This document shows positions 45,197 to 45,428 of a stretch of 64,000 nt of DNA, in pieces. Both the position numbers and the translations under genes were made by a program. Source of the stretch: Escherichia phage vB_EcoM_KAW1E185; the sequence record NC_054922.1. One strand, 5' to 3'. Numbering within the stretch: the first letter of the stretch is position 1; each line of letters opens with the position of its first letter. Below the pieces are notes generated by a model. That model saw only the letters and a program-made list of their open reading frames with translations, ran no database searches and was not told the origin of the DNA.

Positions 45197-45251
45197 ATTA
45201 TATACCATCCGAATCTTAAAGTAAACAAGTATAAATACTTATTATTGAAAA
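45197..45251. repeat. 55-bp direct repeat, copy 1 (identical to 45374-45428), flanking the adapter insertion
   Basis: Exact duplicate of attatataccatccgaatcttaaagtaaacaagtataaatacttattattgaaaa; includes the gene 34 late promoter TATAAATA. Confidence 0.95.
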
Positions 45252-45307
45252 TTTTTTTTTTTTTTTTTTTTTTTTTTTTTTTTTTTTTTTTTTTTTTTTT
45301 TTTTTTT
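45252..45307. other. 56-nt poly(T) homopolymer, non-biological (sequencing/assembly artefact)
   Basis: Uninterrupted T run directly abutting an Illumina adapter; on the minus strand this reads adapter followed by poly(A). Confidence 0.9.
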
Positions 45308-45373
45308 CAAGCAGAAGACGGCATACGAGATCGATCGGTGTCTCGTGGGCTCGGAGATGTGTATAAGAGACAG
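45308..45373. other. Illumina Nextera i7 index adapter: P7 (CAAGCAGAAGACGGCATACGAGAT), 8-nt index CGATCGGT, GTCTCGTGGGCTCGG, mosaic end AGATGTGTATAAGAGACAG
   Basis: Exact match to the canonical Nextera index-2 primer architecture, recognised from memory; not phage sequence. Confidence 0.95.
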
Positions 45374-45428
45374 ATTATATACCATCCGAATCTTAAAGTA
45401 AACAAGTATAAATACTTATTATTGAAAA
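45374..45428. repeat. 55-bp direct repeat, copy 2 (native rnh-34 intergenic sequence)
   Basis: Identical to 45197-45251; continues into the gene 34 ribosome-binding site. Confidence 0.95.
45407..45414 (+). promoter_or_regulatory. T4-type late promoter TATAAATA for gene 34
   Basis: TATAAATA 35 nt upstream of the gene 34 ATG; duplicated at 45230-45237 within the artefactual repeat. Confidence 0.55.

Follow-up and report, generated by a model that had tools for sequence, protein, structure and literature searches.

The window analysed here is a stretch of 64,000 nucleotides of DNA from a T4-like phage, and the spacer between its rnh gene and gene 34 holds an uninterrupted run of 56 T residues, a complete Nextera i7 primer and two identical copies of 55 bp. 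This raises two questions, namely whether the block belongs to the phage and, if it does not, at which step on the way to the deposited record it was introduced. The initial annotation had regarded it as a chimeric assembly junction and not as phage DNA. That interpretation is supported, the block being an artefact of assembly and curation and not a biological feature. The mechanism is refined here: a junction inside a contig is probably not what is seen, and the joined ends of a contig are more likely. Our preferred reading, to which we give a probability of about 0.88, is that the block was made in silico, by untrimmed read-through together with a circular contig assembled at k=55 and joined end to end.

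Architecture of the block

The block begins with a 55-mer of native phage DNA, designated V, at positions 45197-45251. It is followed on the plus strand by 56 T (45252-45307), a pure run which corresponds to poly(A) on the strand of the sequencing read. Next on the same strand are the Illumina P7 flow-cell sequence CAAGCAGAAGACGGCATACGAGAT (45308-45331, 24/24 exact) and the 8-nt i7 index CGATCGGT, read as ACCGATCG (45332-45339), which stands between P7 and the read-2 site. The sequence GTCTCGTGGGCTCGGAGATGTGTATAAGAGACAG at 45340-45373 consists of the Nextera read-2 primer site GTCTCGTGGGCTCGG and then the Tn5 mosaic end AGATGTGTATAAGAGACAG, and is exact at 34/34 positions. The 19-bp mosaic end (45355-45373, plus strand) is directly adjoined by native DNA which starts at the Tn5 cut site, and these first 55 native bases are the second copy of V (45374-45428). 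Over its full length (45308-45373) the Nextera i7 primer, that is P7, index and read-2 site with mosaic end, was matched at 66/66 positions, and the coordinates and counts that had been given for the primer, the 56 T and the 55-bp duplication were all correct.

The P7 sequence taken as the reference in this comparison is supported by 41 phage records, in which the same flanks enclose different indices. The index CGATCGGT presumably falls outside the classic N7xx list. A literature search for this 8-mer returned nothing informative and no kit match.

The two copies of V are 100% identical over 55 bp each. The repeat is not extendable on either side since the flanking bases differ at both ends, with GATTTCT and GAGACAG as the 5′ neighbours and T and C as the 3′ neighbours. 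Chance expectations, calculated for 64 kb on both strands with the base composition of the window, were 6e-37 for the adapter, 3e-23 for the T56 run and 1e-25 for the 55-mer to recur. The G+C content of the block is 53%, as compared with 36% for the window. After T56, the longest homopolymer in the 64-kb window has 9 nucleotides; this longest natural homopolymer is an A9 at 41932-41940, located just past the stop end of gene 32, a gene of the minus strand. No further adapter pieces were found elsewhere in the 64-kb window. The distance to each window end is 18.5 kb or more, and the block is thus internal to the record.

Order of the adapter elements

Read on the minus strand, 45252-45428 gives native DNA, mosaic end, read-2 site, index, P7 and poly(A). 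This order matches that of a read 1 outrunning its insert, and the block is therefore interpreted as adapter read-through of a short insert. In sharing the exact P7, 8-nt index and read-2 site with mosaic end, it resembles Illumina Nextera adapter contamination of the class covered by VecScreen and FCS-adaptor, and screening with FCS-adaptor, for which 64 papers give citations, is in routine use. The same adapter with other indices was present in 41 of the 50,697 deposited phage records; in the sister records described below, the index slot is filled by the 8-mers CAGCCTCG, CTAGTACG and GGCCGTGG. A search of IMG/VR viral contigs for the junction between adapter and native DNA gave 0 matches.

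Comparison with T4-like relatives

A query of 2001 bases across the flanks was compared with the 50,697 deposited phage records, among which 495 T4-like records cover the flanks. In the closest 40 of these 495, the match spans 1823-1824 bases, i.e. 177-178 fewer than the query, and none of them contains the block. The best matches in the phage collection, which reach 98.9% identity across 2 kb and 96.3% across 20 kb, are also free of it. The earlier interpretation as read-through into the adapter, and not phage DNA, is thus borne out both by the exact adapter and by the shorter sequence of the closest relatives.

In T4, vB_Eco_EH2, SA21RB and SholemSchwarzbard, rnh and gene 34 are separated by 104 bp, and this spacer carries a single copy of the 55-mer. 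The window spacer has 281 bp, and 281 - 177 = 104. Alignment of the spacers revealed one gap of 177 columns, which faces exactly 45252-45428, while the rest of the window spacer is identical to that of vB_Eco_EH2, SA21RB and SholemSchwarzbard and one base off that of T4. Deletion of the 177 bp at 45252-45428, for which removal of 45197-45373 is an equivalent alternative, had been expected to restore the native spacer, and it leaves a sequence identical to the three relatives. The length of that native spacer had been put at about 90 bp and is actually 104 bp; the lower estimate was counted from an upstream TTG, whereas rnh, like its T4 counterpart, starts at an ATG (45167).

Neighbouring genes, promoters and open reading frames

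The block is bordered on the left by rnh (RNase H, 305 aa; 44250-45167, minus strand) and on the right by gene 34, which encodes the proximal subunit of the long tail fibre (1289 aa; 45449-49318, plus strand). This agrees with the T4 annotation, and both genes are unaffected by the block. Since the 55-mer contains the promoters of both, the two are duplicated on paper. The late promoter core of gene 34, TATAAATA, is found on the plus strand at 45230-45237, where the artefact cuts it off from gene 34, and again at 45407-45414, at the native distance from the gene. This duplication had been reported in the initial annotation and is accompanied by that of the rnh early promoter, GTTTAC-N14-GGTATATAAT on the minus strand, which is at its native position at 45197-45226 and has a second copy at 45374-45403. 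Early and late promoters are annotated at homologous positions of phage SA21RB. Both rnh and gene 34 retain one promoter copy at the native distance.

Two spurious ORFs had been described, and both exist in the ORF list. The first, of 63 aa, is on the plus strand (45245-45436) and encodes a run of 18 Phe together with GDVYKRQ; the second, of 69 aa, is on the minus strand (45307-45516) and contains LLYTSPSPRD. A third one, which had been missed, encodes 47 aa on the minus strand (45242-45385), with ISEPTR and a poly-Lys run. None of the three was present in the public protein collection, and they are apparently not annotated as proteins. The adapter-derived peptide strings were not found in the 15 papers ranked highest in a literature search, and wider matches concerned only generic 'adapter/adaptor contamination'.

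Some observations were made on other parts of the window. Gene 32 (41998-42906) and gene 59 (43006-43659), both on the minus strand, are separated by a gap of about 100 bp at 42907-43005. The homing endonuclease gene segG, which the T4 annotation places directly beside gene 59 on that side, is absent here; presence or absence of segG is ordinary variation among T4-like phages. An ORF of 686 aa on the minus strand (18517-20577), taken from its first ATG, had no exact match in the public protein collection, in which the other five proteins tested alongside were matched. A different start in the deposited annotation, or a different annotation of the gene, may account for this. No tRNA genes were found in window positions 1-64000.

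Reproduction of the block in a k=55 graph

The numbers 55 and 56 in the block pointed to assembly in a de Bruijn graph at k=55, and this value was predicted from the geometry before the methods of Korf et al. 2019 were known to us. A toy graph with k=55 was constructed from 8 kb of the window, minus the 177 bp and circularised, using tiled error-free reads of 300 nt and read-through reads that terminate at the Tn5 cut. It resolved into just three unitig types per strand: a 56-nt loop of T, a 176-nt tip composed of T55, adapter and V, and a cycle edge which exceeds the genome length by 55 and carries V at both ends. Loop, tip and cycle together amount to the genome + 177 bp and, once the ends are joined, they reproduce the window at 532/532 bases across the junction. 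Circular contigs from SPAdes and other de Bruijn graphs carry a terminal k-mer overlap, and the direct repeat of the window likewise measures 55. Such an overlap normally lies at both record ends and is trimmed at circularisation; here it was kept, with the adapter tip trapped between its copies.

These results suggest a mechanism in three steps. In the first, some Nextera fragments would have been shorter than the read length and the reads would not have been adapter-trimmed. Read 1 would have followed the phage minus strand to the fragment end, which is the Tn5 cut at window position 45374, and continued through mosaic end, index and P7 into poly(A), the latter representing base calls made after the read had passed the end of the library molecule. 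In the second step, the adapter path would form a tip which meets the circular genome at the first fully native 55-mer, V, making copy 2 the branch vertex of the tip. The genome cycle would be broken at V, and its edge would both open and close with V, the k-mer of the branch vertex; copy 1 would then represent the 3′ terminus of the contig as originally assembled. The poly(A/T) end would become a T55 vertex with a self-loop, and T56, which equals k+1, would result if this loop was passed a single time, as the length of the run suggests. SPAdes would emit one contig in the order T56, adapter, V, genome and V, expected to begin with T56 and the adapter followed by ATTATATACC... and to finish with ...TTATTGAAAA.

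In the third step, because T4-like genomes are circularly permuted, the contig would have been re-ordered by the authors to the gene order of T4, in line with published relatives. The ends would have been butted without removal of the tip or of the k-mer overlap, and the product would show V, T56, adapter and again V in the middle of the record. We infer this naive end-to-end join from the geometry and from the methods text of the likely source study (see below). The joined ends of a k=55 contig would explain why the duplication is exactly 55 bp long and adjoins the adapter, and why the T run has 56 residues.

There is a small chance that the assembler instead threaded a chimeric or read-through read through the middle of a contig, the contig ends never being joined afterwards. 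The read-through signature, adapter plus poly(A), is what such an event would leave, and assemblers sometimes thread high-coverage adapter hubs. However, passing from V into poly(T) requires (k+1)-mers that link the native ...GAAAA to T56, which no expected read type provides, and the adapter tip was a dead end in the simulated graph. In addition, an exact repeat of length k adjoining both tail and adapter is the outcome of end-joining a circular contig, and manual rearrangement of contigs is documented in the likely source study (PMC6563267).

The documented pipeline and three sister records

The gene 34 product of the window is identical to QBQ78530.1 / YP_010071449.1 of Escherichia phage vB_EcoM_KAW1E185. 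Exact KAW1E185 matches were also obtained for gp35, gp37 (hypervariable, in a singleton cluster), gp32, a helicase and the rnh product, the RNase H sequence being exactly matched by other phages as well. KAW1E185 is one of the T4-like phages of Korf et al. 2019 (PMC6563267), a study in which Nextera libraries were prepared after Baym et al. and sequenced with MiSeq v3 600-cycle kits. The same text states a 55-mer SPAdes run and a manual rearrangement of the T4-like assemblies to match published phages (PMC6563267). A trimming step is absent from it, and the string 'trimm' occurs nowhere in the text (PMC6563267). This pipeline very probably applies to the window, an attribution that rests on exact protein identity and not on the nucleotide record.

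The same 55 + 56 + 66 + 55 architecture was found in three T4-like sister records of this study, MK327946 (G4507; RefSeq NC_054919), MK327937 (G10400) and MK327945 (G4500). The pipeline is documented for the likely source of the window and for these three sisters. In each of the sisters, 56 T-rich bases precede the 66-nt adapter and an exact 55-bp duplication begins right after it. The blocks occupy three unrelated loci, and their indices differ from that of the window. In contrast to the window block, which lies between genes, those of G4507 and G4500 lie at or in annotated CDSs. The G4507 block (within MK327946.1 76294-77159) is situated between two CDSs, 76072-76752 and 76768-77976, both named baseplate hub subunit/tail lysozyme, suggesting that a single gene was split in two; in the RefSeq copy NC_054919.1 the adapter has the same coordinates as in MK327946.1. 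The G4500 block (within MK327945.1 123562-124427) is inside a 'hypothetical protein' CDS (122956-125181), and the deposited G4500 protein therefore includes translated adapter and poly-T. In G10400 (within MK327937.1 109618-110483) it separates a gene for a group I intron endonuclease from a hypothetical gene.

Among the four blocks, only that of the window has a tail consisting entirely of T, whereas 1 of the 56 nt is not T in G10400, 6 in G4500 and 14 in G4507 (locus positions 345-400). In G4507 these bases are confined to one 15-nt stretch resembling joined mosaic-end fragments. Such noisy tails lie beyond what a homopolymer self-loop alone explains, and the constant length of 56 nt argues for a k+1 loop origin followed by substitution-only change. 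Substitution-only polishing (SPAdes --careful, MismatchCorrector) is the documented candidate and is plausible for the lighter sister tails, with 1-6 substitutions. MismatchCorrector was also considered for the G4507 tail and is unlikely there, since by our estimate of aligner scoring it would not sustain a stretch in which nearly every base (14/15 nt) is a mismatch. Read length was rejected as the cause of the 56-nt tail because it would require equal insert lengths in four independent libraries.

It is improbable, and more so than threading within a contig, that an artefact of the same class came from another pipeline, based on overlap-layout or mapping, in which 55 and 56 equalled k and k+1 by coincidence. 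Duplications of other lengths do exist elsewhere, with 229 bp for Bacillus phage Tomato and 259 bp for Pseudomonas phage SaPL, as such a pipeline would allow. Against it, the values are exactly 55 and 56 in four records of one study, that study states a 55-mer SPAdes run (PMC6563267), and the proteins of the window exactly match those of KAW1E185, a phage of that study. Finally, that a synthetic oligonucleotide was integrated or recombined into the phage DNA, for which nothing speaks beyond the occurrence of the block in the deposited sequence, is next to impossible given the exact 66-nt synthetic sequence with its chance expectation of 6e-37, an orientation and flanks that are exactly those expected from sequencing read-through, the recurrence of this geometry in three sister phages, each time at an unrelated locus, and the lack of the block in the closest relatives (closest 40 of 495). 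In a recombination-proficient T4-like phage, a homopolymer of 56 nt and a perfect direct repeat of 55 bp with copies 122 bp apart would be unstable.

Adapters in other phage records

In most of the 41 records with the adapter, poly-T, adapter and native DNA are found in this order at the record end. This is the typical situation of Nextera contamination (LT985573, LT985590, LT996073 and LR597643), from which the window differs in that the adapter is internal and accompanied by a k-mer duplication. An un-rotated precursor, starting with tail, adapter and V and ending with V, was looked for in these four records, and none of them has a terminal overlap. A fifth end-located case, MW355474, was examined and has a degraded adapter copy, which placed it outside the terminal-overlap comparison. 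The end-located cases illustrate the tip only.

In the first 80 bases of LT985573.1, LT985590.1 and LT996073.1, just 9-10 T precede P7. The oligonucleotide grafted on the flow cell carries a T10 spacer, and the first ~10 A of such a read-through may correspond to real template and not to calls from empty cycles.

Internal Nextera adapters were also observed in four unrelated phages from other laboratories. In Bacillus phage Tomato (MT584805.1 107120-107985), an adapter, Ns and a 229-bp duplication lie between two CDSs that both bear the name DNA polymerase, and Pseudomonas phage SaPL (MH973725.1 6241-7106) has a 259-bp duplication with a CTGTCTC stub. In Paenibacillus phage Pd_22F (MZ092003.1 27600-28465), P5-side and P7-side adapter pieces flank a long poly-C run. 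An error-containing adapter stands beside a baseplate hub/tail lysozyme CDS in Salmonella phage SPFM13 (LR535910.1 239796-240662).

Significance

Two well-known phenomena are combined in this artefact, namely adapter contamination of assemblies and the k-mer overlap of circular contigs from de Bruijn graphs. We lean towards the view that a block of fixed size, made of a k-mer, a homopolymer tail of k+1, the 66-nt adapter and the k-mer again (177 bp at k=55), is a reproducible fingerprint of untrimmed SPAdes circular contigs that were joined naively. If this is true, such joins could be found and repaired in public databases, including RefSeq copies and seemingly split genes. The class would be easy to detect and repair automatically, because the length of the duplication reports the k of the assembler.

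The record of the likely source, KAW1E185, the proteins of which carry RefSeq YP_ accessions too, is 177 bp too long and needs to be corrected by deleting 45252-45428 (or 45197-45373). The artefact is more damaging in the sisters, being flanked by like-named CDSs in G4507 and located within a CDS in G4500. In the window, the three ORFs carry the adapter-derived peptides VYKRQ, LLYTSPSPRD and ISEPTR, and the block could mislead promoter counts, repeat finders, analyses of homopolymers and slippage, training sets of language models and screens for 'novel ORFs'. Its significance for these T4-like phages is one of data hygiene and not of biology, and the sister records need correcting as well.
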